NCBI GenBank assembly: GCA_964527825.1
Contig: CAZGRF010000001.1
Coordinates: 1 to 40,686, forward strand
Length of the DNA stretch: 40,686 bases
Direction: 5' to 3'
Origin: an uncultured Pirellulales bacterium
Lineage (GTDB): Bacteria > Planctomycetota > Phycisphaerae > Sedimentisphaerales > Anaerobacaceae
Shown: positions 3,006 through 28,268 of the stretch, piece by piece
Layout of the letters: each line of letters opens with the position of its first letter
Numbering within the stretch: position 1 is the stretch's first letter
Translations under genes and position numbers: made by a program
Notes under the pieces: generated by a model
The model's input: the letters and a program-made list of their open reading frames with translations, nothing else
Database searches by the model: none
Told to the model about the DNA's origin: nothing

Positions 3006-3014
3006 GGCAAGGTT

Positions 3015-5059: not shown

Positions 5060-5107
5060 GGCACGATCCATGTCCTGGGGACACCGGCCGAGATAGAGAC
5101 TCGAACC

Positions 5108-7882: not shown

Positions 7883-7897
7883 CACGGGTGGAGTCGC

Positions 7898-8680: not shown

Positions 8681-8696
8681 ACTGTGGAGCGTGCCG

Positions 8697-11050: not shown

Positions 11051-11061
11051 GAGCAGGTTCC

Positions 11062-12246: not shown

Positions 12247-12318
12247 TCGTACGGTGATGGCGCGATCTGACGGTGCGTGCCGTGATTCCAGGTTCTTCGT
12301 TTTGAAGAAGGCTAACCG

Positions 12319-13314
12319 ATGATACATGATGAGATACTGACTCAGTTGTGCGGCTCGAATGCCCTCGTCACCGGCGGCACCGGCTTGATTGGACGCCAGG
12401 TAGTGAGAATCCTGTGTGACGCGGGCGCGAGCATTCGAGTGGTTTCCCTCGACCGGATGAAGGTCGATGAACGGGCCGAGCATGTCACAGGTGATCTGGC
12501 AGACTTCGATCTCTGCAAACAGCTCACCAGGGACATGGATTACGTGTTTCACGTTGCCGGCATCAAAGGGTCCATCGATGTAACCAAGAGCAAACCGGCC
12601 AGCTTCTTCGTGCCGTTGCTGATGATGAACACCAACATGCTCGAAGCAGCCAGAGTCTGTGGCGTCAAGAAGACGGTCTACACGAGTTCCATCGGGGCTT
12701 ATCCCAGTGCGGAAGTGTTCAAAGAGTCGGACGGCGATGACGGTCCTCCGATGGACATGTTTCCCGGGTGGGCCAAGCGCATGGCGGAGATGCAGATCCA
12801 GGCGTATCGGATTCAATACGGGCTGCAGAACTTCGCTGTAGTCCGCCCGTGCAACGTGTACGGCCCCGGGGACAACTTCGATCCTAACAATGCCATGGTG
12901 ATCCCCTCATTGATGTACCGCATCCGTAACGGGGAAGACCCCTTGTTGGTCTGGGGAGACGGCTCGGCCGTCCGGGATTTTGCCTACAGCGAGGACGTCG
13001 CAGAGGGCGTCATTCTCGCGCTCTATCACGGCACGCAGGGGCGTTACGTGAACCTTGGCAGTGGACGCGGATATTCGATCCGTGAGCTGGTAGAGACATT
13101 GAACAGTTTCATTCCCTTCAACTACGAGTTCGATACGACGAAATCATCGGGCTTTCCGCGGCGCGTCATGGACATCTCTTTGGCCCGCGACACGCTCGGC
13201 TACGATCCGCAGACATCCTTGGCGGACGGTTTGAAGAAGACCTGGGAATGGTTTGTAGCCAACCAGGAAGAGTATCTGAATCGGAAGAACTACTTCGCGG
13301 AAGCGGGTGTGTAG
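12319..13314 (+). CDS. Extended SDR, GDP-L-fucose-synthase-like epimerase/reductase paralog
   Basis: Motifs are ALVTGGTGLIGRQV, YTSSIGAYP, RPCNVYGPGDNFDPNNAMVIPSL and LVWGDGSAVRDFAYSEDV. The active-site region reads FPGWAKR, with no Tyr four residues before the Lys. Confidence 0.75.
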   Translation: MIHDEILTQLCGSNALVTGGTGLIGRQVVRILCDAGASIRVVSLDRMKVDERAEHVTGDLADFDLCKQLTRDMDYVFHVAGIKGSIDVTKSKPASFFVPLLMMNTNMLEAARVCGVKKTVYTSSIGAYPSAEVFKESDGDDGPPMDMFPGWAKRMAEMQIQAYRIQYGLQNFAVVRPCNVYGPGDNFDPNNAMVIPSLMYRIRNGEDPLLVWGDGSAVRDFAYSEDVAEGVILALYHGTQGRYVNLGSGRGYSIRELVETLNSFIPFNYEFDTTKSSGFPRRVMDISLARDTLGYDPQTSLADGLKKTWEWFVANQEEYLNRKNYFAEAGV

Positions 13315-13833
13315 ATGCAAGTGCAAACGACAAAGCTTGAAGGCGTCTTGCTTATACAACCGCCGACGGTTTTCGAGGATTTCCGCGGAACCTACGTCGA
13401 GACCTACAACGAGCAACTGTACCGGGACAGCGGGGTCGATGTCACCTTCGTACAGGATGACATCTCCGTTTCGAGCCGACATGTCCTGCGTGGCATTCAC
13501 GGCGACGCGGAAACGTGGAAGCTCGTCTCCTGCCTGTATGGGAAGTTCTATCTCGTAGTCGTCAACGGGGACAAGGAATCGAGCGAGTACGGTCGATGGC
13601 AGGGCTTCACGCTGTCGGAACACAATCGACTACAGGTCCTGATCCCGCCCAGACACGGCAATGGACACGTGGTCATGAGCGAGCAGGCCATCTTTCATTA
13701 CAAGCAGTCAACGTACTACAACCCGAAAGGCCAATTCACGATCGTTTGGAACGATCCGGCGTTCAACATTTGGTGGCCGGTCAAACGGCCCATCCTCTCG
13801 CGCCGGGATGAAGTCGGGCATTTCGTGGAATAG
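13315..13833 (+). CDS. RmlC-like cupin sugar-nucleotide 3,5-epimerase
   Basis: Motifs are FEDFRGTYVETY, VLRGIHGD, KLVSCLYGKFYLVVV and IPPRHGNGH..IVWNDPAFNIWWP. It starts immediately after the upstream stop. Confidence 0.8.
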   Translation: MQVQTTKLEGVLLIQPPTVFEDFRGTYVETYNEQLYRDSGVDVTFVQDDISVSSRHVLRGIHGDAETWKLVSCLYGKFYLVVVNGDKESSEYGRWQGFTLSEHNRLQVLIPPRHGNGHVVMSEQAIFHYKQSTYYNPKGQFTIVWNDPAFNIWWPVKRPILSRRDEVGHFVE

Positions 13834-13844
13834 TCGAGGAAACG

Positions 13845-14795
13845 ATGTTTCAAGGACGAAACGTACTGGTGACCGGAGGAGCGGGCTTCATCGGCTCCAG
13901 GCTGGTCGAGCGGCTGCTGGCGGTGGGGGCTCGGGTCCGCGCTACGCTCCATCAGAAGGACGCCGTGCTTTCAGATGACAGGATTGAGTATGTGCGCGGC
14001 GACCTGATGCAAGCCGAAGACTGCCGCCGTGCTTGTGAAGACATGGAATACGTGTTCCTCTGTGCGGCCAACACCTCCGGCGCGGCGGTGATGGAAACGA
14101 CGCCGCTGGTCCATCTGACGCCCAACCTGATCATGAACGCGAGGATGCTGGAGGCGGCCCACGCGGCCGGCGTGAAGAAGACGCTTTTCATCAGCAGTAA
14201 CACGGTTTATCCCGTCTCAGATAGCCCGGTGCAGGAAACGGATGTCACGAACGAATTCTTTGAGAAGTACTTCATTGTGGCATGGATGAAGCGTTTCACG
14301 GAGATCATGTGCGAGATGTATGCCACAAGGATCAAGAAACCCATGCAGACAGTCGTTGTTCGTCCGGCCAACGCCTACGGGCCGGGCGACAAGTTCGACT
14401 GGGAAACCTCCCATGTATTGCCGGCCTTGATCCGTCGTGTAGTTGAGCGTCACGACCCCATCCGGGTGTGGGGCGACGGCAAGGATGTCAAGGATTTCAT
14501 CTATGCAGACGATCTCGTGGAGGGCATGCTGCTGGCGATGGAGAAGATAGACGGCTTCGACGCCGTCAATCTGGCCAGCGGCAGGGAGTATTGTCTGCGC
14601 GATGTTCTGGCCTTGATTATCAAGCTCGACGGCTACGCGGGCGCTCGGGTCGAGTACGACACGAGCAAGCCCACCATGATTCCGAAACGTCTCATCGATC
14701 CGTCAAAGGCAAGGCGTTTGCTGGGCTTCGAGGCAACAACACCCTTGGAAGCCGGCCTGCGGAAGACCATCGACTGGTACAGGAGCACCCTATGA
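13845..14795 (+). CDS. Extended SDR, GDP-L-fucose-synthase-like epimerase/reductase paralog
   Basis: Motifs are VLVTGGAGFIGSRLV, FISSNTVYP, RPANAYGPGDKFDWETSHVLPALIRR and VWGDGKDVKDFIYADD. The active-site region reads YFIVAWMKR. Confidence 0.75.
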   Translation: MFQGRNVLVTGGAGFIGSRLVERLLAVGARVRATLHQKDAVLSDDRIEYVRGDLMQAEDCRRACEDMEYVFLCAANTSGAAVMETTPLVHLTPNLIMNARMLEAAHAAGVKKTLFISSNTVYPVSDSPVQETDVTNEFFEKYFIVAWMKRFTEIMCEMYATRIKKPMQTVVVRPANAYGPGDKFDWETSHVLPALIRRVVERHDPIRVWGDGKDVKDFIYADDLVEGMLLAMEKIDGFDAVNLASGREYCLRDVLALIIKLDGYAGARVEYDTSKPTMIPKRLIDPSKARRLLGFEATTPLEAGLRKTIDWYRSTL

Positions 14796-14944
14796 TTGTT
14801 ACCCATACGTCGTCCAAGATTCCCCGCCCCGATGTCGAAGCGTCCCGCCAGTCGGCTAAGGGGTCCGTCGTGGCTGAGCTTCACAGGGACGCTCCTGATT
14901 CGAGTTCGTTTGCAGAGAGCCGTCGGATCGTACAGGGCCACCCG

Positions 14945-15934
14945 ATGGTCATCACCCGTACGCCGTTCAGAATCTCGTTTTTCGGCGGTGGCACGGACTA
15001 TCCTGTCTACTACAGGGAGCAGGGCGGTGAGGTCCTGAGCACGACCATCAACCAGTACTGCTATGTCACTTGTCGCTACCTTCCACCTTTCTTCGACTAC
15101 AAATACCGGGTTCGCTACTCCAAGAGCGAGACCACGAACACTATCGATGAAATCGAACATCCCTCGGTCAGGGAATGCCTGCGTTTTTGCGGTATCGACC
15201 GCTGTGCGGAGATCGTGCATACCAGCGACATCCCGGCCATGTCCGGTATCGGGTCCAGTTCCTCCTTTACCGTGGGACTTCTACAGGCACTGTACGCGCT
15301 GAAAGGGGAGATGGTCACCAAGCGACAGTTGGCGTTCGATGCTATCCATGTCGAGCAGGACATCATCAGGGAGAGCGTCGGCTCGCAGGACCAGACGGCC
15401 GCGGCCTTCGGCGGCTTGAACCATATCGAGTTCGGCGGACGGAGCGACGGCATCTTCGTTCAGCCGGTCATCATGTGCCCGGAAAAGCTCGCTTATCTCC
15501 AGGAACATCTGCTCTTCTATTTCACAGGCTTTTCTCGATATGCGTCGGAGATCGCCCGCGAACAGGTCCGAAACACGCATCGGAAGCTCAGCGAACTCAA
15601 GCGGATGCGCGAAATGGTGAGTGAAGCGTTGGATATCCTGAGAGGTCCCGTCCATGGCTACGAAGCGTTCGGCAGGCTTCTGCACGAGTCCTGGATGCTC
15701 AAGAGAGAGCTTACCGACCTGATTTCGAACAGCACGATAGACGAGATCTATGAAACGGCGCTCCGAGCAGGCGCCTTGGGCGGGAAGCTGTGTGGCGCAG
15801 GCGGCGGGGGATTCATCCTCTTCTTTGTTCCGCCCGAGCGACAACCTCGGGTCAAGGCAGCCTTGGACCGCCTCTTGTTGGTGCCGATGCGGTTTGAGAA
15901 TCTCGCCTCACACATCATATTTTACGCACATTGA
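14945..15934 (+). CDS. GHMP-family sugar kinase, COG2605 / D-glycero-D-manno-heptose-7-phosphate kinase (HddA)-like
   Basis: The start MVITRTPFRISFFGGGTDYP is the typical N-terminus of this family. The GHMP motif is DIPAMSGIGSSSSF, and the C-terminal part has GGKLCGAGGGGF. An alternative in-frame ATG at 14792 (ATGA overlap with the upstream stop) would add 51 aa. Confidence 0.8.
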   Translation: MVITRTPFRISFFGGGTDYPVYYREQGGEVLSTTINQYCYVTCRYLPPFFDYKYRVRYSKSETTNTIDEIEHPSVRECLRFCGIDRCAEIVHTSDIPAMSGIGSSSSFTVGLLQALYALKGEMVTKRQLAFDAIHVEQDIIRESVGSQDQTAAAFGGLNHIEFGGRSDGIFVQPVIMCPEKLAYLQEHLLFYFTGFSRYASEIAREQVRNTHRKLSELKRMREMVSEALDILRGPVHGYEAFGRLLHESWMLKRELTDLISNSTIDEIYETALRAGALGGKLCGAGGGGFILFFVPPERQPRVKAALDRLLLVPMRFENLASHIIFYAH

Positions 15935-15941
15935 CTCTCCT

Positions 15942-18900
15942 ATGGGCCCAGGAGCCGAAGTCCGTGTTAGCATGAGGTGCGAAGTGATGTCAGTCGATAA
16001 GAGCACACCGATGTTTTCCATCTTCTCGGCTATCAAGAATGTCGAGAGCCGTGAAGCTATGTTCCGGCGCTGCATCGAGAGCGTTCTCAACCAGACGTTT
16101 GGGGATCTCGAGTGCGTCATACAGGACGGCGGGTCCGCAGATAGAACGGCGGATATCGTCGCGGAATACCAGGATCCACGAATCCGGTTCCTGTCAGTCC
16201 CTGATTCCTGTGGCGAAGAGGGTTTCTTCCGGGCGCTACAGCGGTGTCGCGGGACGTACATTGGCTCGTGCCTGTCCGATGAGGAGTTGCTGCCGGATGC
16301 GCTGGAGAACGCCCGGCGGGCCTTCGAGGATCACCCGCAGGTTGCCGCGTTCTATGGAAATGTCTGCTATGTCAATGAAAAGGGAGAAAAGTGGGGCCCT
16401 CGGATACCGCCTCATCCGTTTTCCATCGAGGCTTATGTATGCCAGACCTTAGTTCCGCCTTTCTGCTCTTCGTTCTTTCGGCGAGAGGCTGTCGAGAAAG
16501 CGGGGCTACACGAGCATCACTGGCGATACGGCATAGGAGAATTCGAGTTCTGGGTTCGGATTGCGGGCGCGGGAGGCATTATCTACCTGCCCTTCAACAT
16601 CAGCCATTTCGGCCGGCACTCGCAGTCCAATACGCGCAGTGTGGGAGTATACGATCAGTTGTTGGCGGGGCGAGAGGGGGTGATGCGCGACCTCTTTCGT
16701 GAAAACACGATCCTGCGAGAGTGCAGCGTCAGCGTCGAGCAGGCGATCGCGGGCAACTACGTCTGGGGGGCCAGCGGGGTATTCAACATCGAGGGGCTGT
16801 CCAGGAAGTGTGAGTACTTCATGCAGCAGGCTGAGCGGTATGACCCAGGAAGTCCCCAATTAGCGAGGCTAAGGAGCCGCGTGTACAAGGCGGCCCCACC
16901 TCGGCTCACAACAGACAGCACATGCTCCGCCGCGGTCCGGAAAGACTCTTCACTGCCTCCTTCGGGGGAATTCGCACGTTGGCTCAAGGTTCTGTCTTCG
17001 ATGGACAATCGCCTGTACTACCGGGACCAGTCTCCTCAGACTCTGGCTGCTCTGTGCTCTCTGGCCCACGATTTCGAGCCCACAGTGATTGTGGAGATCG
17101 GCACTCTGGGAGGATTGTCTTTGCGAACGTGGCTGGCCGGCACCGAGCGGGCCAGGATCGTTGCGGTTGATCTCAGCTTTGCCAAGCTCACGCAGACGCG
17201 TCGTGTTCTTCCTCTGGATCTATCCCGTGTGACTCTCCTGGAGCAGGATATCCTCAAGACGGATTTCTCGACTCTCTGGACGGCGCAGGACAGGGTGGTC
17301 CTCTTTGTCGATGCGCACGATCTGCCCAACGTGCCGATCATGCAGCATGTGCTCACGAAGGCTCTACCTTGTTTGCCGGAGGGGAGTCTCGTCATCGTAG
17401 ACGATCTGTGGTTCAGTGAACAGAGACTAACGCGCGAGAATGCCGGGGCCTTTTTGGAGAACCATGTGGTCGGCGAGATCGATGAGCTGCAGTGCTTCAA
17501 TGGGCACTACGCCCCACACCACGCAGGTGGTTCGTTCATGGGTTTTGCCGAGGTGATCCCGCTCCTGGAGTTTGTCAATAGGCACGGCATCACGCTTGTC
17601 CATGACAGAGAAGACAAACACGCCTGTTTCACGTGGAAGAGAGAGTACCTGTCGCAGAATCAGGGACGTGTTGGACAAGGTCCCGTCGAACCTGACGAGT
17701 GTTGGGGCGCCGTATTGTACAATCCCCTGGAATCTGTACCCGTGTCCGGGCCGCTGCGTGAGATGGTGAGTCGCATCGCCACTGTCTATTCACAGGGTAA
17801 GACGAGGCAAGTTGCCGAGAGCCTCCAGCAGCTCTTTGGGCAGCATCCCCATGACCAGGGGCTGTGCTATGCCTTGGCGGTCTGTCTGGCCAGGTTGGGT
17901 ATGCTCTCGCAGGCCAAGGACGTTCTTGTCGGCGGTTCGACCGACTCCAACCACCCACGCTACCAGCGGCTCCTTGACGATCTTGTTGAGCGCGTCGAAC
18001 CGTCTGGATCGCACCGGTCTCAGGAGTTGCGACCGCCGGCAGATGAGCGCGGTCTGACCATCTTTGCCTTGCCTAAACCCTTCGCCGGCGACATTGCCAC
18101 CATTCAGAAGAACGCCATTCGAAGTTGGGCGAGGCTCAGACCGATGCCGGAGATCATTCTCTTCGGTGACGAACCCGGGACGAGGCAAATGGCCGAGGAG
18201 ATCGGTGCTCGCCATGTTCCGGAAATCAGCCGCAACGAGTTTGGCACGCCTCTCGTCGACAAGCTCTTTCAGGCCGCGCAGGACCATGCTTCCCACACCG
18301 TCATGGCTTATGTGAACGCCGACATGATCCTCTTCCAGGACTTCGTCGAGGGGGTGCGAACGGTGCAGACCGGTTTGTCGAGTTTTCTTCTCATCGGCCA
18401 ACGCTGGGATGTCTCGATCTTCGATGAGATCGATTTCGACCGGCCCGAGTGGCAACAAACACTCGAGAGGCGGATGGAAGAACAGGCTATGATCCATCCT
18501 GAGTCCGGCTTGGACTACTTCGTCTTTCGCAAGGGCTTGTGGCCGACGATTCCTCCCTTTGCCATCGGAAGGACGGTATGGGACAATTGGTTGGCCATGG
18601 ATCCTCACAGACGGGGCGTTCCGGTGGTAGACGGCACAGAATGCATCACCGCCGTTCATCAAGACCATGATTACGGGCACATGGCCGGGGGGCGGCAAGA
18701 GGCCTGGACCGGTGTGGAAGCCGCTCAGAACCGCGCGCTGGCCGGCGCGACGGACGGTTCGGGACGCACTTCTGGAGCTACCTGCGCTTTGAAGAAGGGC
18801 GGCGTACTGGTCAAGGTGAAGCCCCACAAGTCCTGGTGCAGTACTACTGTGTACAAAGACGAGCGGAGTGCTTGGTTGCTGAAGCAAGCAAACGGCCTGG

Positions 18901-21900
18901 TCGCCATCGACAAAGAGGAATTGGCCGCCTGCAAATGTGACGAGGCGTTGGTGGTTCTGCGAAATCTGCTTTCGCTGGTGCAGCGTAAGTCTCCGCAGGT
19001 GGAGTCTCTGGATCGTGTCGTCATCGCTCAGCGATACGTGAGCTGCCATACACTGTTGGCCCAGTGCTACCAGAAGATGGGACGCTACGATCAGGTCGCG
19101 GCGACCTACACGCGGCTTCTGAAGAATCCTTTCGTGCAGATCCCGCAAGCTGCGCGAGATGATATAGCCCGATTGCGGGATCAGGCTGCGTGTTTCTCAC
19201 GTGAGAAGCGGCTTTCGACAGGTTCGCAGGGTGGTTCAGAACACCGGGACATCAGGCTGGGGGTGGTCCAGACGCAGAACATGACACCGTCACAGGGCGA
19301 AAGCCGGTTGGCCCCGGCGCTTCGGAGTGCGGGCGATCCTGAACCTGCGGCCTCGTGCGCATCCGGTCTGCATGCTGCTGATCATCGGCCGAAAGTCACG
19401 GTGATCACAGCGTGCTGGAACAGTGAAGAACACTTGCCGGAATGTCTTGATAGCATTCTGGGTCAGACCATGCCGGATTGGGAGCTGTTTCTGCTCGACG
19501 ATGGCAGCACAGACGGCACGCGACACATCATTGAGGAGTATGCTCGCCGCGATGCACGGATCAAGGCTCATTGCTTTGACGACAACCGAGGGCCCTACGT
19601 TCGGCGGAACTTTGCCATCGAACGAGCCAGTTCTGATTTCATCGTGATTCAGGACGCCGACGACATGATGTGTCCCGACAAGCTGGAGCGGCTCTACCGC
19701 GCCATCATGCAAGACCAACGACTGGGCGTTGTCGGTTCTTTCTACCTCATGTTCCTCGAATGGTACCAGGGGCCGGAGCACGCAGATGAGGTGACTCTGA
19801 AGACCACGCACGAACAGATTCTCCAAGACTATCGTGATTGTGCCATATGCGATTATTCCTGGCATGGTTCCGCCATCATCCGGAAACGCCTGTTCGAAGA
19901 GATCGGTCTCTATGATGAGAATCCCTTCAGTTCGGATTCCTTCTGGTTGGCCAAAATGGCTGAACTCGCATGTCGTAGCGACGGGATTCGGTTGAAGAAC
20001 ATTTCCGAGTTCCTGACTTTGCGAAGAATGCGGGCGGATTCACAAACGGGCAGTCTGCCCTCATTCGATCCGCGCAGCCGGCGGGCCAAGTTCCGCGATT
20101 ACCGCCGGAGTATGCTGTCCGAGGTGATGCAGAGACTCGACGTGGACCCGAGCGCCGATGTCAAGGCGGAACTGCGCAAGTCCGTCTGCAATGATTTCGT
20201 CGCGCGCAACGGTCATCTCTTTGATTCTTGGGAAGGCCAGCCGCTGACGAATCAAACCGTGGGTCGTTTTATCAGTAGAATCTACACGCAGTTCTGCTTG
20301 GGGCAATTCGTGCGCTGTATCAACACATGCGGCATCGTGGAGCGCTTGGTTGAGGGGGTGGCACAGATGATGCCCTGTTACGACCTAACCCGGGGTCTGG
20401 CGTACTTCGCACTTGGTTTGCCGCAAAAGGGCAAAGAGCATCTTGAACGAGAGTACCGCAGGCACGGCACCATTGCCGCCAGGGATTTCTGCTGGCAGTA
20501 CATCGATGCGGACACGGCCGAATGGACCAAAGCCCAGCGAGTCGAGATCATCCGTCGAGCCATTTTCGACGGCGTATCGAACGAGACATCCATGGCCCTG
20601 GCGCGCGACGGTCTAACGTGCTTGTGGGACCGTCGCGGTGGTCGCTCGCCAGAACTGTCGCTTGTTGTTGAGTTCAACGAGAATCCGACTCAATGCTATG
20701 AACGGCTTGTGGCGCTGAACGAGCAGAACGAGAAGACCTTCGAAGTCGTCGCACTGGCCTCCACGGAGAGCTCACAGGCTTTGAGAGAAGCGGCGAGCAA
20801 GGTCGATTTCGATGTGGTACTGCTGACGGCAGAGGGCGATATCAGTCGATGGCGCCGACGGAACCTTGCCGCCGGGTACGGCCGAGGGCGGTTCGTGGCG
20901 TTCCTGGACCAGTGCGTATGGCCCGAACGCGACTTCGTGCAAGCCGTTCTGCAGGCATTTCGGGAGAATGAGATCGATGGCCTCAGAGGCAAGATCGTCG
21001 CATTCTCTGGCGGTGACTTGCCCGTCTACTGTGATTTGGGAGACATCCCGATCTATGCGGCCTGTGACACGGACCAGATGTGTGTGTTCCGAAAGGATGT
21101 CTTCACGAGCCTTGGCGGTTTCTTGGAGACGCCGTTCAGCCGAGGAGCCATTGTCCTTTCGTACCTGATATACACAAGTGAGCAGGTGGAAAGACGCCCG
21201 ATTCTCTACTGTCCGAACGTCGTGGTCCGAAGAGTTGTCGAGCCCAAACGCTGCTTCGGATTGTTCGATCCGTACGCGATGGAGAATCGGTTCTGCACCG
21301 AGCGGCTCAGCCGGTTGATCGATCCGCAGACCAGAGACGAGCAGGAGATCGCGGTCTTCTTGAGATTCGTCGAAAGCCTGTATGCTGCTGGAGAAGGCAC
21401 GGAGGATGAGCGATACGAGCGGGCCCTGAGCAACAGTCTGTTCTTTCTGAACAGATTCCCGCGTATTGCGTTGGAGTGGGCCCAGAAGGCGCTGGCGGAG
21501 CGTCAGAATTCAATCAGGGCCAAGTGTTTAGTCGGTCTCTCGAGCGCCACTATGAGTCAGCCTGACCAGGCTTGCGCGTTTCTCAGTGAGGTTGTTGATC
21601 CGTTGGAGCGGCTGTTGGCTGCCGGCCGAGTGGATCGTTCGCAATGCGAATTCGACGACTACGCTTGTTTGCCGGGTCTTTACATATCCACCTGCACGCT
21701 GCTGGCTCAGTCCCTCATGAAGATGGGGCGGCACGAACAGGTCGCTGCGACCTACACACGTCTTTTGGCGAACCGCAACGTGTGCCTCTCCGAGACCCGG
21801 AGGAATGACATGGAACGGTTGCGTGACCGACTGCTCGCGGTCTGCGGAGCCAACACCAGTCATGACGCGATATCAGGGCAGCGACCGAACTCCCAGGCGG

Positions 21901-24491
21901 CGCAGGTCCGCGAACGCCCTGCGGCATCGTCAGTTGAACGAACAGCGGAGACTGTCGATGATATCGAACCTGCTACTCCGCACGCGCACGCCTTGGCCGA
22001 GTTTGAATGCAAATACAGATCCATGCCCAATCGTGCGCCGGCAAAGCATGTTGCGGCTGTCCGGCTGTCCGAGCTCTGCCGCCGGATGGGGCAGGCCGAA
22101 AAGGCTAACGCGTACGCCATCCAGGCCTTGAAGATCAAGAACAACGTTGCATTCGAGGACGCTAAGCGGCGCAAGCCGAGCGTCTGCAACCACAAGCCTA
22201 CCATCGTGGAATTCAACGTCATCACACGGTGCAATGCCGGCTGTATCATGTGCAATTATGGACCGCAGGGGAAGACCCTAGAATTGGACCAATTCAAACG
22301 CTTGGCCGATGAACTGCTCCCGACGGCGCAGAGGACTCTCTTGATCGGCGGAGAGGTGCTGCTCCACCCCGATTTCTACGCGATGTGCGAGTATACCAGC
22401 CGCTTTGGTGTTTGTCTGGAGATGACGACCAACCTGTCTACTCTCGCCGGCAATCGAGCCGAGGCCATTCGACGGTTCTTTGGTTCGGTCCGAGTCTCCA
22501 TCGACGGGGCCACCAAGCAAACGTATGAATCGATACGAACGCATCTGAGCTTCGACAGGCTACAGGAGAACCTTCGGAAGCTGGCCGAGATCAAGCGGCA
22601 GAGACCCGATCTGGCACTCCAGTTGGCGTTTGCCGCGATGAGGCAGAACATTGTCGAGCTTCCCGACACGATCGAGATGGTGGCGCGATTCGGTTTTGAC
22701 AGTGTGGCCGTCAGCTTCGTGCACGTCCATGCCAGGTTGACGCTCGATGACTCGTTGGTCTTCCACCGGGAGGAGGCGAACCGTTACTTCGACCTGGCTC
22801 GACAGAGGGCCGCGGCATTGGGACTGCGACTTGACATCCCCAACAACTTCGATCTGAGCCGACAGCCGTTTCTTGCTCCTGAGAGACTGAGCGATGGACA
22901 CAAGCAGTGTGTCAGGCCGTGGCAGCGGGTCAGAGTACACATCAACGGCGATATCATACCTTGCTGCCGTCTGTACGGCCTACCCATGGGCAACGCCTTT
23001 GCAGAGCCGTTCGAGCGGACCTGGAACGGCCCGAAATACGAGGGCCTCAGGGAAGCCATTGCCAACAGCAGCGATTGCCTGCCGGCGGAATGCAAGCACT
23101 GTGAGCTAATCACTGGGCCGACGGATTCGAATGACGCGTTGTTACACATCAATTCGAGTTGTCTGCCTGAACTGAAGAAACGCCTTGAAGAGCGTCCATC
23201 CGAGCAGCGAACCGGTGCTGTCGCCTGTGGATCAGGCGGTGTCCGTCGTCCCAAAGTCACCGTCGTCACAGCGTGCCGCAACGGCGAGCGGTTCCTGGCG
23301 GAATCGTTGGAGAGTGTCCGCAATCAGAGCCTGCAGGAATGGGAGTTGCTTCTACTCGATGACGCCAGCACGGATGGGACGCGACGCATCATCGAGGAAT
23401 ACGCGCGTCGAGACCCTCGTATCAAGCCGTTCTATTTCGATGTTAGCGCAGGACCCTACGTCAGACGCAATTTCGCGATCGAACGAGCTGACTCCGACTT
23501 CATTGTCATCCACGATTCCGACGATCTCATGATGCCGACCAAGCTGGAGAGGTTGCACAATGAGATCAGCAGGGACAGCCGTCTGGCGATGGTAGGTTCC
23601 TTCTACCGTACCTTCTTCGAGGATTTCAAGGGTATCCAGTACACGGATCCGATCGAGTTGCCTACTACACACGAGGAGATCACGCAGAAGTCGCTGACAT
23701 GGCAGCATGGAGTCAGTCACATCTCGGCAATCATCCGAAAGTCGATGTTTGACTGCATCGGAGGCTACGATGAGAATCCCTTTGCTTCCGATGCTTTCTG
23801 GTCCGCGAAGCTTGCCGAATGCTCCCGGCACAGCTCCAATGCACGCGTTAGGAACATCCCCGAATATCTGACCCTGTACAGGGTGCACAACGATAGTCAG
23901 ACGCAGGTCCTCTCCATGTTCGACCCGCGTAACAGGAGGGTCCGATACCGCAGCTACTGTGAGTGCAAACTGGAACGAATCCGGGAGAAAATGCGGTCTG
24001 TGCCTGAGACGGATATCGCCCGCGAGCTCCGGAATTGCACGTGTTCCGATTTCTTGATGCGCTTCAAGGCCCATATCATCCGGTGGGAGAATGAGCCGCT
24101 CGATCGGCGTGTGACTGACGATCTATTGCGGGGTGCCGTCGGAGCGTTCAATGGAGGGTATCACGTCAGTTGTGTCAATATTCTCCACGGCACTGAAGTC
24201 ATGGAGCCTGCGATCTCCAGACGCATCATGGGCTTTGACTTGCTCAGAGGCATGGCCCTCTTCGCTTTGGACATGAGGGCCCGGAGCATGGAATGCCTGC
24301 AGAAGGAGATTCAGAATCATGACAACTCGGCGGCGCGGAAGTTCATGACCGACGCCTCTGCGGCAGAGGCACAGATCGACGTGTTGACGTGGTGCCAGGA
24401 GAACGCCGGGCAGCACGATCTGGGCTTGCGTACCGCTGAGTCCGTCGTGTCTCGGGGTACTGCCCCCTGTGCGGGCGCAGCGCGAAAATAG
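15942..24491 (+). CDS. Giant multidomain glycosylation protein (~2850 aa): several GT2/GT-A modules + CmcI-like methyltransferase + TPR-like linkers + radical SAM/twitch-SPASM module
   Basis: One uninterrupted frame runs for 8.7 kb. Candidate starts are ATG 15942, 15972 and 15987, the last with GAGG 8 nt upstream. Recognisable in-frame modules are:
- GT2 at ~16010-16650
- CmcI-like MTase (VIVEIGTLGGLS) at ~16970-17650
- GT-A-like module (IFALPKPFAGDIATIQKNAIRSW...) at ~18050-18690
- GT2 (VITACWNSEEHL..LLDDGSTDGT..QDADD) at ~19390-19950
- degenerate GT-like module at ~20657-21200
- radical SAM (CNAGCIMC at 22230-22253) plus Cys-rich twitch/SPASM at 22908-23105
- GT2 (VVTACRNGERFL..LLDDASTDGT..HDSDD) at ~23245-23800. 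Confidence 0.85.
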   Translation: MGPGAEVRVSMRCEVMSVDKSTPMFSIFSAIKNVESREAMFRRCIESVLNQTFGDLECVIQDGGSADRTADIVAEYQDPRIRFLSVPDSCGEEGFFRALQRCRGTYIGSCLSDEELLPDALENARRAFEDHPQVAAFYGNVCYVNEKGEKWGPRIPPHPFSIEAYVCQTLVPPFCSSFFRREAVEKAGLHEHHWRYGIGEFEFWVRIAGAGGIIYLPFNISHFGRHSQSNTRSVGVYDQLLAGREGVMRDLFRENTILRECSVSVEQAIAGNYVWGASGVFNIEGLSRKCEYFMQQAERYDPGSPQLARLRSRVYKAAPPRLTTDSTCSAAVRKDSSLPPSGEFARWLKVLSSMDNRLYYRDQSPQTLAALCSLAHDFEPTVIVEIGTLGGLSLRTWLAGTERARIVAVDLSFAKLTQTRRVLPLDLSRVTLLEQDILKTDFSTLWTAQDRVVLFVDAHDLPNVPIMQHVLTKALPCLPEGSLVIVDDLWFSEQRLTRENAGAFLENHVVGEIDELQCFNGHYAPHHAGGSFMGFAEVIPLLEFVNRHGITLVHDREDKHACFTWKREYLSQNQGRVGQGPVEPDECWGAVLYNPLESVPVSGPLREMVSRIATVYSQGKTRQVAESLQQLFGQHPHDQGLCYALAVCLARLGMLSQAKDVLVGGSTDSNHPRYQRLLDDLVERVEPSGSHRSQELRPPADERGLTIFALPKPFAGDIATIQKNAIRSWARLRPMPEIILFGDEPGTRQMAEEIGARHVPEISRNEFGTPLVDKLFQAAQDHASHTVMAYVNADMILFQDFVEGVRTVQTGLSSFLLIGQRWDVSIFDEIDFDRPEWQQTLERRMEEQAMIHPESGLDYFVFRKGLWPTIPPFAIGRTVWDNWLAMDPHRRGVPVVDGTECITAVHQDHDYGHMAGGRQEAWTGVEAAQNRALAGATDGSGRTSGATCALKKGGVLVKVKPHKSWCSTTVYKDERSAWLLKQANGLVAIDKEELAACKCDEALVVLRNLLSLVQRKSPQVESLDRVVIAQRYVSCHTLLAQCYQKMGRYDQVAATYTRLLKNPFVQIPQAARDDIARLRDQAACFSREKRLSTGSQGGSEHRDIRLGVVQTQNMTPSQGESRLAPALRSAGDPEPAASCASGLHAADHRPKVTVITACWNSEEHLPECLDSILGQTMPDWELFLLDDGSTDGTRHIIEEYARRDARIKAHCFDDNRGPYVRRNFAIERASSDFIVIQDADDMMCPDKLERLYRAIMQDQRLGVVGSFYLMFLEWYQGPEHADEVTLKTTHEQILQDYRDCAICDYSWHGSAIIRKRLFEEIGLYDENPFSSDSFWLAKMAELACRSDGIRLKNISEFLTLRRMRADSQTGSLPSFDPRSRRAKFRDYRRSMLSEVMQRLDVDPSADVKAELRKSVCNDFVARNGHLFDSWEGQPLTNQTVGRFISRIYTQFCLGQFVRCINTCGIVERLVEGVAQMMPCYDLTRGLAYFALGLPQKGKEHLEREYRRHGTIAARDFCWQYIDADTAEWTKAQRVEIIRRAIFDGVSNETSMALARDGLTCLWDRRGGRSPELSLVVEFNENPTQCYERLVALNEQNEKTFEVVALASTESSQALREAASKVDFDVVLLTAEGDISRWRRRNLAAGYGRGRFVAFLDQCVWPERDFVQAVLQAFRENEIDGLRGKIVAFSGGDLPVYCDLGDIPIYAACDTDQMCVFRKDVFTSLGGFLETPFSRGAIVLSYLIYTSEQVERRPILYCPNVVVRRVVEPKRCFGLFDPYAMENRFCTERLSRLIDPQTRDEQEIAVFLRFVESLYAAGEGTEDERYERALSNSLFFLNRFPRIALEWAQKALAERQNSIRAKCLVGLSSATMSQPDQACAFLSEVVDPLERLLAAGRVDRSQCEFDDYACLPGLYISTCTLLAQSLMKMGRHEQVAATYTRLLANRNVCLSETRRNDMERLRDRLLAVCGANTSHDAISGQRPNSQAAQVRERPAASSVERTAETVDDIEPATPHAHALAEFECKYRSMPNRAPAKHVAAVRLSELCRRMGQAEKANAYAIQALKIKNNVAFEDAKRRKPSVCNHKPTIVEFNVITRCNAGCIMCNYGPQGKTLELDQFKRLADELLPTAQRTLLIGGEVLLHPDFYAMCEYTSRFGVCLEMTTNLSTLAGNRAEAIRRFFGSVRVSIDGATKQTYESIRTHLSFDRLQENLRKLAEIKRQRPDLALQLAFAAMRQNIVELPDTIEMVARFGFDSVAVSFVHVHARLTLDDSLVFHREEANRYFDLARQRAAALGLRLDIPNNFDLSRQPFLAPERLSDGHKQCVRPWQRVRVHINGDIIPCCRLYGLPMGNAFAEPFERTWNGPKYEGLREAIANSSDCLPAECKHCELITGPTDSNDALLHINSSCLPELKKRLEERPSEQRTGAVACGSGGVRRPKVTVVTACRNGERFLAESLESVRNQSLQEWELLLLDDASTDGTRRIIEEYARRDPRIKPFYFDVSAGPYVRRNFAIERADSDFIVIHDSDDLMMPTKLERLHNEISRDSRLAMVGSFYRTFFEDFKGIQYTDPIELPTTHEEITQKSLTWQHGVSHISAIIRKSMFDCIGGYDENPFASDAFWSAKLAECSRHSSNARVRNIPEYLTLYRVHNDSQTQVLSMFDPRNRRVRYRSYCECKLERIREKMRSVPETDIARELRNCTCSDFLMRFKAHIIRWENEPLDRRVTDDLLRGAVGAFNGGYHVSCVNILHGTEVMEPAISRRIMGFDLLRGMALFALDMRARSMECLQKEIQNHDNSAARKFMTDASAAEAQIDVLTWCQENAGQHDLGLRTAESVVSRGTAPCAGAARK

Positions 24492-24610: not shown

Positions 24611-26947
24611 ATGGGCGAATTGCGGCTTCCAGGACTCGCAACGGGCATCGACACCAGCGCGCTGATTAGCCAGCTCATGGCGATCGAGAGACGGACACTC
24701 AACAAATACGTAGAACGCAAGAACACCTGGGAGGAGCGTAGGGATGCCCTGAGCAGCCTCACGACCAAGCTTGAGACACTGAAGAGCACAGTCGCGGCTC
24801 TCTCTGATGCCAGTACGCTTCGCGCCTACACGACGGTCTCCAGCGACTCGGACATCCTGACGGCCGAAGCGTCCAACAATGCGTTTGAGGGCAATCACAC
24901 GGTTGTCATCAACCAGTTGGCCAATGCGGAACGCTGGGTGCACACGACTGGCGAGAAGTACGCGGAAGACTACGTCGGGGAAGGGACCTTCATCTACGCC
25001 TACAACCGCCAGGAGGTTGTTATTACCACCACGGCCGACACCACTCTGGAGGAGCTCACCGGGCTAATCAACAACGATGCGAACAATCCCGGAGTCACGG
25101 CCAATCTGCTTTACTACAACGATGCCTATCACCTCGTTCTCAATGGTAATGATGCCGGCTCGGACTACGAGATCGGGATCAACGCCAGCAATACGGAAGT
25201 CTGGCAGATGACATCGTCGTTCACCGACGGGGGCGAGAACGCGGCCCTGGCCACGAAGATCATGGATCTCGATCAGTTCAGCGGCACGTTTGCCGGCGAC
25301 GAATCCATCACCATTAGCGGCCAGCAGCACGACGGGACGGCCGTGAGCCACGAGTTCTCGATAAATGCGAACACCAAGCTCGATCATCTCGTCGAGGAGA
25401 TCAACGACGCCTTCGGCGGCACGGCCACGGCAACACTGGTCCACGGCCAGATTCGTCTGACCGATCACACCAACGGCACGAGCCAGATGCAGTTGAGCCT
25501 GACCTACAATCCGGGCTCCGGCTCCACGACGCTTGATATTCCCACCATTAGCCAGTCCACCGAGGGCGGCAGCGTGACCGCCGACCTGACGGATTATGCC
25601 GCATCCGATTTCTTAGAGACCCAGGCAGCGCAAGACTCCAAGATTCGCGTGGATGGTTATCCTCCACAGACTGGAGAAGTGCAGCTTCTGACGACGACTC
25701 AAGCCGCGAACAACGGCACCTTTACTTTGACATACGAGGGCCAGACGACCGCTCCAATTGACCATGATGCAGACGCGGAGACGATACAGGCTGCCCTGGA
25801 GGCCTTGTCTACAATCAATGCCGGCGATGTCACGGTCTCGGGCAATGGGCCATCGGAGCTCGGAGACACGACGTTCGCCTTCCTGGAGACTCTCGGCAAT
25901 GTCAGCCAGATTACCATTGACGCGAGTAACCTCACCCCGGGCAGCCCGTCGGAGTACACCATGTCTACCCAAACCGAAGGCGACCTCGGTTGGATTAGCA
26001 GAAGCTCGAACACAGTCGACAACGTGCTTCAGGGCGTGGCCCTGCATCTGCACGATACCGGCACCGTTCAGGTGAACCTGACCCGTGACATCGAGTCGGT
26101 TAAACAGAAGTTGACCTCCATGGTTGATGCGTACAACGCGGTGATGACATTCATCAAGGAGAAGACTGCCTACATGGAGGAAACCAAAACGGCCGGCGTC
26201 TTGATGAGCGATTCTACGGTATCAAGGATCAATAATGACATGCGCATGCCGTTGATACGACAGACAAGCGGCTTTGTCGTTGATGTCGACAGCTTTCTCA
26301 TGCCGGGTGAGATTGGTCTTGAGCTTGATGGTGAGGGCGTGCTAAACCTGGACACCAGCGCCTTCAACGACGCGATTGCGGAAGACTACATGGGTGTACT
26401 GGCTATCATTGGGGCGGACAAAACCGGCAGTTCCGACAGCAATACGATCAAGTTCTACGGGGCCTCGAGCAAGTACACCACAGGCGGAACATACAATGTG
26501 CAGGTGACGGTCTCCGGCGGGGCGATCACGAGCGCTCAGATGAAGCTGTCCACCGAATCGACCTATCGCGATGCGACCTTCAGCGGGAACATTGTCACGG
26601 GTGAGAGCACCTTCAACAGCAACGGCAATGCCGTATATCCTGAGAACGGCCTGCAGCTCAGCATTGACCTCAGTCAGAACGGGACGTTCACCGCCACGGT
26701 TCGCGTCAAACAGGGCTGTGCGGGCGCGATGGAGGACACGCTTGATCGCTTCCTGAAATCTACGACCGGCTGGCTTGGCTTGGATGAAGAATCCGTCGAA
26801 ACGCAAATCGAGAATCTGGAGGATCGAATTGCCATCGAGGAAGACCGCCTCTCCCGACATGAAGATCGGCTGGTGGCGAAATATGCTCGGTTGGAGAAGA
26901 CCCTGACCTTACTCCAGAATCAGATGGCTGCACTGGGGCTGTCTTGA
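24611..26947 (+). CDS. fliD: Flagellar filament cap protein (hook-associated protein 2), long form
   Basis: The N-terminus is LPGLATGIDTSALISQLMAIERRTLNKY. The C-terminal coiled coil is ..IENLEDRIAIEEDRLSRHEDRLVAKYARLEKTLTLLQNQMAAL. At 778 aa it is much longer than the ~470-aa enterobacterial form. Confidence 0.9.
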   Translation: MGELRLPGLATGIDTSALISQLMAIERRTLNKYVERKNTWEERRDALSSLTTKLETLKSTVAALSDASTLRAYTTVSSDSDILTAEASNNAFEGNHTVVINQLANAERWVHTTGEKYAEDYVGEGTFIYAYNRQEVVITTTADTTLEELTGLINNDANNPGVTANLLYYNDAYHLVLNGNDAGSDYEIGINASNTEVWQMTSSFTDGGENAALATKIMDLDQFSGTFAGDESITISGQQHDGTAVSHEFSINANTKLDHLVEEINDAFGGTATATLVHGQIRLTDHTNGTSQMQLSLTYNPGSGSTTLDIPTISQSTEGGSVTADLTDYAASDFLETQAAQDSKIRVDGYPPQTGEVQLLTTTQAANNGTFTLTYEGQTTAPIDHDADAETIQAALEALSTINAGDVTVSGNGPSELGDTTFAFLETLGNVSQITIDASNLTPGSPSEYTMSTQTEGDLGWISRSSNTVDNVLQGVALHLHDTGTVQVNLTRDIESVKQKLTSMVDAYNAVMTFIKEKTAYMEETKTAGVLMSDSTVSRINNDMRMPLIRQTSGFVVDVDSFLMPGEIGLELDGEGVLNLDTSAFNDAIAEDYMGVLAIIGADKTGSSDSNTIKFYGASSKYTTGGTYNVQVTVSGGAITSAQMKLSTESTYRDATFSGNIVTGESTFNSNGNAVYPENGLQLSIDLSQNGTFTATVRVKQGCAGAMEDTLDRFLKSTTGWLGLDEESVETQIENLEDRIAIEEDRLSRHEDRLVAKYARLEKTLTLLQNQMAALGLS

Positions 26948-27185
26948 GACAGCCAAAGCGTGATCTAACACGTTGACGATGGCAAGGAAGGTCGCGTTCT
27001 CGGCGACCTCGCCACACTGCCTGCCGGGGTCTTCATGATCTCGGGCCGCTCCTGTGACAGCTTCCACTTCCAGGGACTCTGTGGAACCGGTGGCGAACGA
27101 GGATTCGAGTTCCCAGACAGAGCCCGGTATAACGCGTCCCATTTCCTGGCTGCCGGCAGAATCACGAGTCTATGGCATCGGCTTG

Positions 27186-28268
27186 TCAGCGCTGCGTCAT
27201 CATCTTCTTCTTCTGTCTCAGGCGGTAGAGCATGGCGAGCACCTCGGCGATGGCGACGTAGAAGGCTTCCGGGATGGTCTGGCCGGGCTGTACGGAGGCG
27301 TAGATGGCACGTGCGACTTCGGGACGCCTGATGATGGGAATGCCATAGGACTGCGCAATCTTGATGATCTTCTGCGCGAGATGATCGGCGCCTTTAGCCA
27401 CCATGATCGGCGCGTCCATCGTCTTGGCGTCGTAGCGCAGGGCGACCGCCACGTGCGTCGGGTTGACCAGGATGACACTGGCTTTCGGCACCTCTTGCAT
27501 CAGACGTTTCATGGACATTTCGAGCTGGATTCGGCGAATCCGCGACTTGATCTCAGGAGAACCATCCGTGTCTTTGCGCTCCTGCTTGACCTCCTGGCGG
27601 GTCATCTTGAGATCCTCAATGTGCTGCCACCTTTGGTAGAGCGCATCGGCAATGCCAATGACCAACACGGCGATGCCCACCCGAATGCCGAGACCGAAGA
27701 CGATCCTGGCGATTCCCGCGATGATTTCGGTGGACCAGGCCCAGCGGAGTGTGGCCAGTGTCTCCAGCTTGTCGCGGAGATAGACCCAGACGATGAGGCT
27801 GACGAACAGTAGCTTGGCAATGGAACTGAGCAGACGCACGAGAGATCGCTTGTTGATTAGGTTCTGGATGGCCGTGGCGGGATTGATGGCATTCCATCTG
27901 AACTGGATGGCGCCCGGAGCGTACGTTGCGCCACCAACGACGAGGCTCGCGAGCACGCCGGCTACGGACATTGAGGCGAGAACGGGAAGCACGACAATGA
28001 TTGCCTCGACAATCCTCGCATTCACGTAGGCTATGAATGTCTGGGCGCTCAGAAAGGTGTCGGTTTGGCCGGACATACCGGACTCGACCTTGGATCTGCA
28101 CCACTGAAAGAAGTCCGGACCTATCAGTGCGATCACCAGCAAGAGGACCACGAGCGTGACCGCGGCAGACAGATCCTGACTCTGGGGTGTCTGTCCCTTC
28201 TGACGGGCCTTCGCCAACCTTCGTGGAGTCGGTTGTTCGGTCTTCTCAGCGGCTGGTTTATCTGCCAT
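27186..28268 (-). CDS. flhB: Flagellar type III export switch protein FlhB
   Basis: Motifs are AEKTEQPTPRRLAKARQKGQ and four TM segments. The autocleavage motif is VNPTHVAVALRY, and the C-terminal part has IPIIRRPEVARAIY. Confidence 0.95.
   Translation of the reverse strand: MADKPAAEKTEQPTPRRLAKARQKGQTPQSQDLSAAVTLVVLLLVIALIGPDFFQWCRSKVESGMSGQTDTFLSAQTFIAYVNARIVEAIIVVLPVLASMSVAGVLASLVVGGATYAPGAIQFRWNAINPATAIQNLINKRSLVRLLSSIAKLLFVSLIVWVYLRDKLETLATLRWAWSTEIIAGIARIVFGLGIRVGIAVLVIGIADALYQRWQHIEDLKMTRQEVKQERKDTDGSPEIKSRIRRIQLEMSMKRLMQEVPKASVILVNPTHVAVALRYDAKTMDAPIMVAKGADHLAQKIIKIAQSYGIPIIRRPEVARAIYASVQPGQTIPEAFYVAIAEVLAMLYRLRQKKKMMTQR

Follow-up and report, generated by a model that had tools for sequence, protein, structure and literature searches.

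Here we describe a radical S-adenosylmethionine (SAM) module that is embedded in a giant multi-glycosyltransferase protein and encoded directly upstream of the flagellar cap gene fliD in an uncultured Pirellulales bacterium (GenBank assembly GCA_964527825.1, contig CAZGRF010000001.1); the 40,686 nucleotides (nt) that were analyzed are referred to as the window. Judged by its sequence, the segment is a real radical SAM (rSAM) domain that is followed by a C-terminal auxiliary Fe-S domain and looks functional. The domain type is a known one, and its identity and architecture are solid. With a probability of roughly 0.5, the giant protein is a cytoplasmic machine for the glycosylation of flagellar proteins that has an in-line, sugar-directed radical SAM step, the reaction and substrate of which we infer. 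Because a radical SAM domain is found here in a multi-glycosyltransferase protein beside the flagellar cap gene, radical chemistry probably helps to build the sugar coat of the flagellum.

The radical SAM core and its twitch-type auxiliary domain

Residue numbers (aa) are counted on the 2913-codon open reading frame (ORF) at 15750-24491 (+). By homology, the radical SAM/twitch module comprises aa 2148-2480 (nt 22191-23189). The initial annotation, made from the sequence alone, had placed it at 22190-23110, which gives the correct location but an end that is about 80 nt short; the motifs that it quoted are all present where it had put them, in the frame of this one ORF. The core contains CNAGCIMC (aa 2161-2168), which is the sole CX3CX2C motif of the whole giant protein, and IGGEVLL, of which IGGEV represents aa 2199-2203. 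In an alignment of 17 sequences, comprising that of the window together with eight orthologues that are fused and eight homologues of other lineages that are free-standing, the C2161/C2165/C2168 triad was kept in all homologues reaching this region (15/15), with the two truncated sequences retaining the third cysteine. The GGE motif was kept in 15 of the 17 sequences, and the two most distant ones have GxGE.

Both domains were also recognized by curated profiles. When the whole protein was searched, the Pfam model Radical_SAM (PF04055) scored 38.6 bits against a cutoff of 29.5 bits on aa 2156-2281, and the SPASM model (PF13186) scored 38.0 bits against a cutoff of 21.5 bits on aa 2387-2452, with an E value of about 2e-9 for each; the excised module piece gave 42.6 and 41.6 bits, respectively. 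The best homologues of the module were found with an E value of 1e-173. The initial annotation would have been abandoned if no significant radical SAM/SPASM profile match had been obtained or if the cysteine motifs were not conserved in orthologues; the profile scores exceed the curated cutoffs, and the triad and five auxiliary cysteines are kept in the orthologues. An AlphaFold2 model of aa 2128-2484 (mean pLDDT, 86.5; pTM, 0.85) has alternating strand-helix elements and a partial barrel. Foldseek matched this model to solved SPASM/twitch radical SAM enzymes with E values of 1e-14 to 1e-7, and the neighbors in the PDB were SuiB, SkfB, CteB, DesII, BlsE, viperin, anSME, EpeE, PqqE, MoaA, and BtrN (TMq, 0.40 to 0.64). 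As modeled, the fold is that of a generic SPASM/twitch radical SAM enzyme with no especially close structural relative.

Downstream of the core, CVRPWQRVRVHINGDIIPCC (nt 22908-22967) provides a CX12GX4CC motif and is followed by WNGP (nt 23022-23033) and CLPAECKHC (nt 23076-23102). Five auxiliary cysteines, C2387, C2405, C2406, C2448, and C2451, were kept in 17/17 aligned sequences and are spaced C2387-X12-G-X4-C2405, then X42, then C2448-X2-C2451; C2443, the first cysteine of CLPAECKHC, and C2471 were variable among the homologues. In a phmmer comparison of the C-terminal 120 residues with BtrN (E = 0.002), C2387, C2405, C2448, and C2451 aligned with BtrN C169, C188, C232, and C235, and the fifth conserved cysteine, C2406, is family specific. 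In twitch domains, such as those of BtrN, MoaA, and SkfB, a cysteine is found before a β-hairpin and another after GX4, with a CX2C pair after a helix. Enzymes of the SPASM subclass, including anSME, PqqE, AlbA, and MftC, have two auxiliary clusters and the seven-cysteine motif CX9-15GX4C-gap-CX2CX5CX3C-gap-C. The module contains the ligand set for the single auxiliary cluster of a twitch domain, which has been described as a truncated SPASM domain (PMC6231123). A full seven-cysteine SPASM domain that holds a pair of auxiliary clusters was rejected, as a CX2CX5CX3C block is missing and neither C2443 nor C2471 is conserved; the Pfam SPASM model matches despite the lack of the seven-cysteine motif. 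Since only five auxiliary cysteines are conserved and four of them coincide with the BtrN ligands, the domain is best described as a one-cluster twitch domain and not a SPASM domain, and by its cysteine pattern it should hold one auxiliary [4Fe-4S] cluster. The module has all the sequence features needed for binding two clusters and SAM. The previous description as a radical SAM plus twitch/SPASM module with a C-terminal cysteine cluster therefore holds for the presence of the two domains but has to be amended for the SPASM type and for the first cysteine of that cluster.

The initial annotation had suggested placing the module by profile relative to families such as anSME, BtrN, and PqqE, and in this comparison the module stayed below every equivalog cutoff. 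The best curated model was NF033640 (N_Twi_rSAM), with 91.3 bits against a cutoff of 170 bits; the match is split into two parts, of which one is confined to the core (query aa 19-199 on profile positions 106-312 of 398). Other NCBIfam models were further from their cutoffs, with 79.5 versus 400 bits for TIGR04311 and 72 versus 380 bits for TIGR04317, and the equivalog models gave 48.7 versus 500 bits for AhbD, 47.2 versus 265 bits for MftC, 35.3 versus 381 bits for PqqE, and 30.6 versus 400 bits for BlsE (TIGR04466). The module was also below the cutoffs of the BtrN, anSME, and NirJ equivalog models, with NirJ and AlbA scoring lower than TIGR04317. Membership in a characterized family was rejected for this reason, every NCBIfam model being far below its cutoff, and the module is therefore assigned to an uncharacterized clade of twitch radical SAM proteins.

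Three further cysteines were noted in or next to the module. C2146 (nt 22185-22187), located 15 residues before the CX3CX2C motif, is kept in 9/9 fused modules and is missing from standalone homologues, and C2213 and C2222 are not conserved in the 17-sequence alignment. The minus-strand ORFs beneath the module are short shadows without evidence of coding.

A conserved giant protein in a flagellar locus

A species-level scan, with one genome per species and the five-sequence alignment A2, revealed the module at 63 to 74% identity in eight Planctomycetota metagenome-assembled genomes (MAGs), which are labeled Sedimentisphaerales, Phycisphaerae/Phycisphaerales, Planctomycetota, or "Pirellulales." The orthologous frames are uninterrupted and 3,020 to 4,159 aa long, apart from one frame of 1,946 aa that is cut by its contig, and they are collinear with the window protein, the orthologue in locus L008 being 65% identical over aa 78-2913. 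In seven divergent loci (50 to 76% protein identity), an RmlC-reductase-GHMP kinase gene group is followed by the giant gene, fliD, and then flhB and fliP, and the giant gene has retained its place between sugar genes and fliD. As eight MAGs carry collinear giants with the same synteny, the fusion is not an assembly artifact; a frameshift artifact or a chimera was rejected on the basis of the same eight independent assemblies. An exhaustive HMMER search of a representative library of 1.84 billion proteins returned 22,017 matches with an E value below 1e-3, of which 122 were below 1e-30. Six of the library representatives are giants (the top five matches and P0039; 1,946 to 4,014 aa), and the giant architecture forms at least six clusters at 50% identity.

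Module maps of the orthologues show that the radical SAM module is always present as a single copy and is always flanked by a TPR block and a GT2 domain with a helical tail. Around this constant core, the orthologues vary by species: the first domain may be exchanged, a stretch of about 500 aa inserted, or a further GT2+tail unit added at the C terminus. Among seven orthologues, the radical SAM core (68 to 77% identity) is about as conserved as the catalytic GT2 domains (63 to 84%) and much more so than the TPR blocks (31 to 82%), the short linkers (3 to 37%), and the degenerate GT2 domain. By this pattern of conservation, the radical SAM module is under purifying selection.

The giant contains five GT-A-type domains, one methyltransferase-like domain, three TPR blocks, and the one radical SAM/twitch module (Table 1). 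Its catalytic domains are arranged in the order GT2, methyltransferase-like, X, GT2+tail, degenerate GT2, radical SAM/twitch, and GT2+tail, with the TPR blocks in between. The embedding among GT2 modules that had been reported for the window was confirmed, as Glycos_transf_2 matches extend over aa 98-250, 1217-1385 (GT2 domain 2), and 2504-2670 (GT2 domain 4), in addition to a degenerate copy. The latter, GT2-like domain 3, is the least conserved globular part of the protein (36 to 48% identity among the orthologues) and is possibly a noncatalytic scaffold domain. The methyltransferase-like domain has a weak Pfam match but is 70 to 89% identical among the orthologues. Domain X gave no Pfam, NCBIfam, or PDB sequence match; its standalone homologues, of which there are at least 762 in bacteria and archaea, are about 300 aa long and all annotated as "hypothetical." Since the Foldseek matches of the domain X model are exclusively GT-A glycosyltransferases, this domain represents a widespread glycosyltransferase-like family that is not covered by the libraries searched.

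The arrangement points to an internal duplication. The two GT2+tail units are 46% identical over 397 aa in a pairwise BLAST comparison, and a 77-nt direct DNA repeat at 19050/21696 marks TPR blocks A and B, which cross-match in the orthologues; a self-BLAST of the polyprotein returned the identity match only. Given the duplicated TPR blocks and the 77-nt repeat, a TPR-linker-GT2 unit is duplicated in the giant, with the radical SAM module inside the second copy and only a low-complexity linker at the corresponding place in the first. No transmembrane segment was predicted in the giant (the top 19-aa Kyte-Doolittle mean is 1.39), and the protein is therefore taken to be cytoplasmic. Translation likely starts at the ATG at 15987, as judged from the alignment: the orthologues align only from aa 78-88 on, the Met column is conserved, and GAGGTG is found 7 nt before the ATG. 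The approximately 79 codons ahead of this ATG (15750-15986) show no conservation in the orthologues, and they overlap with the final part of the GHMP kinase gene.

The giant gene belongs to a Planctomycetota (Phycisphaerae/Sedimentisphaerales-like) flagellar locus into which a sugar island is inserted, with GDP-heptose/6-deoxy-sugar-type genes on the upstream side of the giant gene and fliD on the downstream side. The island encodes an HddC/ManC-like nucleotidyltransferase, a Gmd-like 4,6-dehydratase, methyltransferases, SDR epimerases/reductases, an RmlC-like epimerase, and an HddA-like GHMP kinase. Also within this nucleotide-sugar cluster, at 3015-6902 (+), are genes for a PDH-E1 alpha/beta-like pair and for the N and C halves of a split transketolase, which suggest that a two-carbon unit is transferred onto a sugar in a thiamine-dependent reaction, so that the sugar becomes branched or extended. 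Encoded in the remainder of the window are FlhB, FliP, FliO, MotA/B, FliJ, FliI, FliH, and FliG. Hence, the combination that marks flagellin glycosylation, a glycosyltransferase together with dedicated sugar genes in a flagellar locus, is present. A 252-codon ORF at 27054-27812 (+) that appeared "conserved" in related loci is an antisense shadow of flhB (27186-28268, minus strand), and an Rfam scan of the window returned nothing.

In total, the sugar island contains three radical SAM domains, namely, the module, a B12-binding radical SAM protein (9671-11050), and a standalone paralogue (11062-12246). In the paralogue, an N-terminal twitch motif, C16-X12-G-X4-C34C35...C77-X2-C80, precedes the CX3CX2C motif at aa 139-146, and BLASTP aligned it with the module at 30% identity in the core (E = 4e-12) and 33% identity in the twitch domain (E = 6e-6). 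As the twitch domain is N terminal in this protein and C terminal in the module, the two are circularly permuted paralogues in one island.

Table 1. Coordinates of the features discussed in the text (all on the plus strand)
Feature	Position (nt)	Residues or motifs	Basis and remarks
Nucleotide-sugar pathway genes	1240-15934		Upstream of the giant gene, same strand; Pfam and NCBIfam
B12-binding radical SAM gene	9671-11050		PF04055 and weak PF02310; PhpK/HpnJ/BchE/AprD4-like by NCBIfam
Standalone radical SAM paralogue	11062-12246	SPASM, aa 16-81; Radical_SAM, aa 133-279	
Giant multi-enzyme gene	15987-24491	About 2834 aa	Frame opens at 15750; likely start, ATG 15987 (M80)
GT2 domain 1	16041-16499	aa 98-250	PF00535, 66 bits; different N-terminal domain instead in L011-L013
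Methyltransf_24/CmcI-like domain	16950-17609	aa 401-620	PF13578, 22.5 bits, below cutoff
TPR block 1	17790-17975	aa 681-742	PF14559 (TPR_19), 38.8 bits
Domain X, family-less, GT-A-like	18030-18779	aa 761-1010	AlphaFold2 pLDDT, 91.4
TPR block A	18867-19184	aa 1040-1145	TPR matches; duplicated as block B
GT2 domain 2 + helical tail	19380-20624	aa 1211-1625; DAD motif	PF00535, 111.8 bits
Degenerate GT2-like domain 3	20625-21329	aa 1626-1860	PF00535, 18.1 bits, below cutoff; match near aa 1651-1757
TPR block B + linker	21750-22190	aa 2001-2147; includes C2146	Directly 5' of the module; TPR_8/TPR_2 at aa 2104-2132
Radical SAM core	22191-22889	aa 2148-2380; CX3CX2C (CNAGCIMC), 22230-22253; GGE (IGGEVLL), 22344-22364	PF04055 above cutoff
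Twitch-type auxiliary Fe-S domain	22890-23189	aa 2381-2480; CX12GX4CC, 22908-22967; CX2C, 23091-23102	PF13186 above cutoff
GT2 domain 4 + helical tail	23244-24488	aa 2499-2913; DSD motif	PF00535, 107.4 bits
fliD	24611-26947		Directly 3' of the giant gene; FliD_N, FliD_C, Flagellin_IN; Pfam name, hook-associated protein 2

Sugar or protein as the target of the proposed radical chemistry

In the mechanism that we propose, the giant would glycosylate a flagellar protein, most likely flagellin, with the GT-A domains adding sugars in succession. The TPR blocks could dock the protein substrate, for which the N-terminal domain of FlmG offers a comparison (PMC7591256), or organize the modules. With its CX3CX2C cluster reduced, the radical SAM module would cleave SAM, and the 5'-deoxyadenosyl radical would abstract a hydrogen from a carbon of a sugar, which might be a nucleotide-sugar donor or the sugar just attached. 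From here, two outcomes are conceivable: the auxiliary cluster could take up an electron, as in BtrN and anSME, resulting in dehydrogenation to a keto sugar, or C2406, beside the cluster, could return a hydrogen, resulting in epimerization. The product would then be consumed by the GT2+tail module, which always follows the radical SAM domain.

The context favors the glycan as the target of this chemistry. Free-standing homologues of the module are about 360 aa long and 42 to 55% identical to it, and the genes of five close ones are located in glycan clusters in all five cases, in three of them (L001, L002, and L004) directly after a GT2 gene. Their neighbors encode a carbamoyltransferase, Methyltransf_24, GT11, GT29, GT61, DUF6625, or a Wzm/Wzt-like ABC pair. 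The clusters on the metagenomic contigs L001, L002/L003, and L005 are unusual: genes for GT2, carbamoyltransferase, Methyltransf_24, and DUF6625 proteins are mixed with those for sialyltransferase-like GT29, GT11, GT61, and PLOD-type glycosyltransferases. A viral origin of the standalone homologues was considered and is not indicated, as there are no close relatives in IMG/VR, where the best matches are partial and 24 to 37% identical.

Fusions provide a second link to glycosyltransferases. Among relatives at 30 to 35% identity, P0027 and P0120 are GT4-rSAM/SPASM fusions; P0108 combines GT2-GT2-GT4-rSAM-rSAM/SPASM, P0016 is an rSAM-GT2 protein at 55% identity, P0021 and P0024 carry tandem radical SAM domains and a class III aminotransferase, and P0142 is a TPR-rSAM array. 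A homologue search with GT2 domain 4 and its tail returned mostly fragments on short contigs and yielded one related flagellar locus with split genes and no giant, L087 (ena:ERZ25039462, contig_5313). In this locus, an 812-aa MT-B12-rSAM-GT2 fusion (4649-7087) is followed by a GT2-GT4 protein and then by a homologous GT2 gene directly before fliD; it is an independent radical SAM-glycosyltransferase fusion in the same kind of locus. The view that a covalent GT2-radical SAM fusion is very unusual is therefore only partly right, given the giants in eight MAG species, the clusters that they form, and the independent GT4 and GT2 fusions. Fusions and gene order repeatedly tie the clade of the module to glycosyltransferases.

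Maturases of ribosomally synthesized and posttranslationally modified peptides (RiPPs) are recognized by an N-terminal RiPP recognition element (RRE) and a nearby precursor gene; here, the neighbors are sugar and flagellar genes. No RRE/PqqD-like domain was found at an E value of ≤0.1 in aa 2130-2480 or aa 1640-2150, a search of limited sensitivity for divergent RREs, and the upstream piece (aa 1640-2150) gave only TPR and weak GT2 matches in Pfam. The best PDB sequence matches of the module, although weak, are BlsE, DesII, and BtrN, which modify sugars or cyclitols. The glycan clusters around the close standalone homologues, the fusion of distant relatives to glycosyltransferases and aminotransferases, and the absence of a detectable RRE together argue for a sugar target. 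It is of note that the MAGs of the relatives (Sedimentisphaerales/Phycisphaerae) come from anaerobic reactors and sediments, an origin that fits a radical SAM enzyme.

Several points weigh against a sugar-directed step in flagellar glycosylation. The module reaches no curated family cutoff, sequence similarity networks have been described as a poor basis for predicting fold and function in this subfamily (PMC6231123), and the substrate, the site of hydrogen abstraction, and the reaction outcome have all been deduced. The top structural neighbors in the Foldseek search, SuiB, SkfB, and CteB, are peptide maturases, and a TPR repeat directly precedes the module. No flagellin gene is present within the 40.7-kb window, and thus the acceptor is assumed from position only. 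Furthermore, in an Acidobacteriota MAG (L014, 5735-10987), a distant standalone homologue (about 32% identity) lies downstream of HlyD/MacB-type exporter genes, separated from them by about 680 nt of unassigned sequence; this setting may point to peptide maturation and calls for caution when a function is extended to the wider clade.

The structural neighbors, the TPR repeat, and the exporter genes would each be accounted for if the target of the module were not a sugar but the acceptor protein, whether flagellin or some other protein of the flagellum. It could then catalyze an anSME-like oxidation of Ser/Cys, an EpeE/PoyD-like epimerization, or a cross-link that prepares or complements a glycosylation site, with the TPR repeats presenting the polypeptide. 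We consider this unlikely. Most characterized SPASM/twitch enzymes modify peptides or proteins (PMC6231123), anSME and EpeE are among the structural matches as well, and the TPR-rSAM array of P0142 shows that such arrays occur among the relatives; however, the five closest standalone homologues lack TPR repeats and have no peptide maturation genes among their called neighbors in addition to lying in glycan clusters, relatives are repeatedly fused to glycosyltransferase and aminotransferase domains, no RRE/PqqD-like domain was detected, and the matches to PDB entries at the sequence level are sugar enzymes.

A rather improbable explanation is that the giant builds another cytoplasmic glycoconjugate or a cell envelope glycan precursor and that its adjacency to fliD is coincidental; the module would still tailor a sugar. 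Capsule and lipopolysaccharide synthesis typically involves GT2 domains and GDP-heptose-type pathways, and the standalone homologues are found in nonflagellar polysaccharide clusters, in addition to the missing flagellin gene. Against such a role stand the position of the giant gene between sugar genes and fliD, which is kept in the seven divergent loci and in the split-gene relative, the combination of TPR repeats with a glycosyltransferase as in FlmG, and the lack of a transmembrane segment and of any flippase, polymerase, or lipid carrier transferase among the ORFs scanned. Finally, that the module is a dead or structural remnant or that the fusion is an assembly or frameshift artifact is effectively excluded: the degenerate GT2 domain 3 next to it shows that dead domains may exist in the giant, but the eight SAM cluster and auxiliary cysteines are kept across different phyla wherever the aligned sequences reach, with no cysteine loss in close orthologues, the GGE motif is kept in all but the two most distant sequences, the radical SAM core is among the best-conserved parts, and the frame is uninterrupted in the eight MAG assemblies and six database representatives.

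Building on the reading as a flagellar glycosylation machine, we tentatively suggest, as a doubtful but attractive extension, that the giant is a template-like glycan assembly line. The order of its modules would mirror the order in which a flagellar oligosaccharide is built and tailored, and between two transfers the radical SAM domain would functionalize a C-H bond of the protein-bound glycan on-line. If true, this would give protein glycosylation its first radical SAM step and be a carbohydrate counterpart of the tailoring domains of polyketide synthases and nonribosomal peptide synthetases, and the module swaps, insertions, and duplications among the orthologues would predict differences in glycans between species.

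Comparison with known systems

Radical SAM enzymes of the twitch/SPASM type have been studied mostly as peptide maturases or as free-standing enzymes of antibiotic sugars, and flagellin glycosylation involves ordinary nucleotide-sugar pathways and one or a few transferases. We searched the literature for radical SAM enzymes linked to flagellin glycosylation or to O-antigen/polysaccharide biosynthesis, for glycosyltransferase fusions, and for multidomain flagellin glycosyltransferases, and found no such system described. New in this sense are a module embedded in a conserved, flagellum-linked giant of 3,000 to 4,000 aa, its circular permutation relative to a paralogue of the same island, and the recurring glycosyltransferase-radical SAM fusions. 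If the proposed function is correct, radical C-H chemistry would be added to protein glycosylation, and the domain order suggests the following GT2 module as the user of the radical SAM product. A single soluble protein whose modules are naturally gained, lost, and swapped would then be a test case for ordered bacterial glycan assembly. In addition, the uncharacterized clade of about 120 cluster representatives (E < 1e-30), members of which are repeatedly fused or adjacent to glycosyltransferases, is a promising place to look for new radical reactions that modify sugars in anaerobes.

Among characterized enzymes, BtrN, the 2-deoxy-scyllo-inosamine dehydrogenase of butirosin biosynthesis and the founding twitch enzyme, offers a parallel in layout: its radical SAM core leads into a C-terminal twitch domain whose four auxiliary ligands align with those of the module at nearly the same spacing, and its substrate is carbohydrate-like. 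Its auxiliary cluster has been suggested to oxidize the radical intermediate (PMC6231123). The similarity to the module is, however, marginal (E values of about 0.002 to 0.007, in the twitch part only; Foldseek TMq, 0.40), and BtrN is a free-standing protein of an antibiotic pathway (PDB chains of 269 to 270 residues), whereas the module is embedded in the giant and has the extra conserved cysteine C2406. For the radical SAM core, BlsE and DesII are the best sequence matches with solved structures (Foldseek E = 1e-13 to 1e-11; TMq, 0.53 to 0.63). They were deposited under sugar-modifying names (cytosylglucuronate decarboxylase and DesII) and act on nucleoside-linked sugars, but they are only about 14 to 18% identical to the module in the structural alignment and are stand-alone enzymes of antibiotic pathways. 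The NF033640 family is uncharacterized and differs from the module in that its twitch domain is N terminal and not C terminal. The paralogue at 11062-12246 likewise has its best score with this model (88 bits, below the cutoff of 170 bits) and has a CX12GX4CC...CX2C motif identical to that of the module.

The covalent linkage of a glycosyltransferase to a radical SAM domain is shared with P0027, P0120, P0108, and the L087 fusion, the last of which is likewise encoded just upstream of fliD. These proteins differ from the giant in their glycosyltransferase families, domain orders, and radical SAM subtypes, their radical SAM domains being 28 to 33% identical to the module or, in the case of the B12 type, unrelated to it; they are uncharacterized, and a TPR-rSAM-GT2 arrangement within an approximately 3,000-aa giant is found in none of them. 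With respect to flagellin glycosylation, the closest likeness is to FlmG of Caulobacter, whose N-terminal TPR-containing domain binds flagellin (PMC7591256). Like the giant, FlmG is cytoplasmic and combines TPR repeats with a glycosyltransferase, a likeness in design for which no sequence relationship is claimed. FlmG has 596 aa and one GT-B domain without tailoring domains, whereas the giant combines its five GT-A-type domains with a methyltransferase-like domain and a radical SAM domain.

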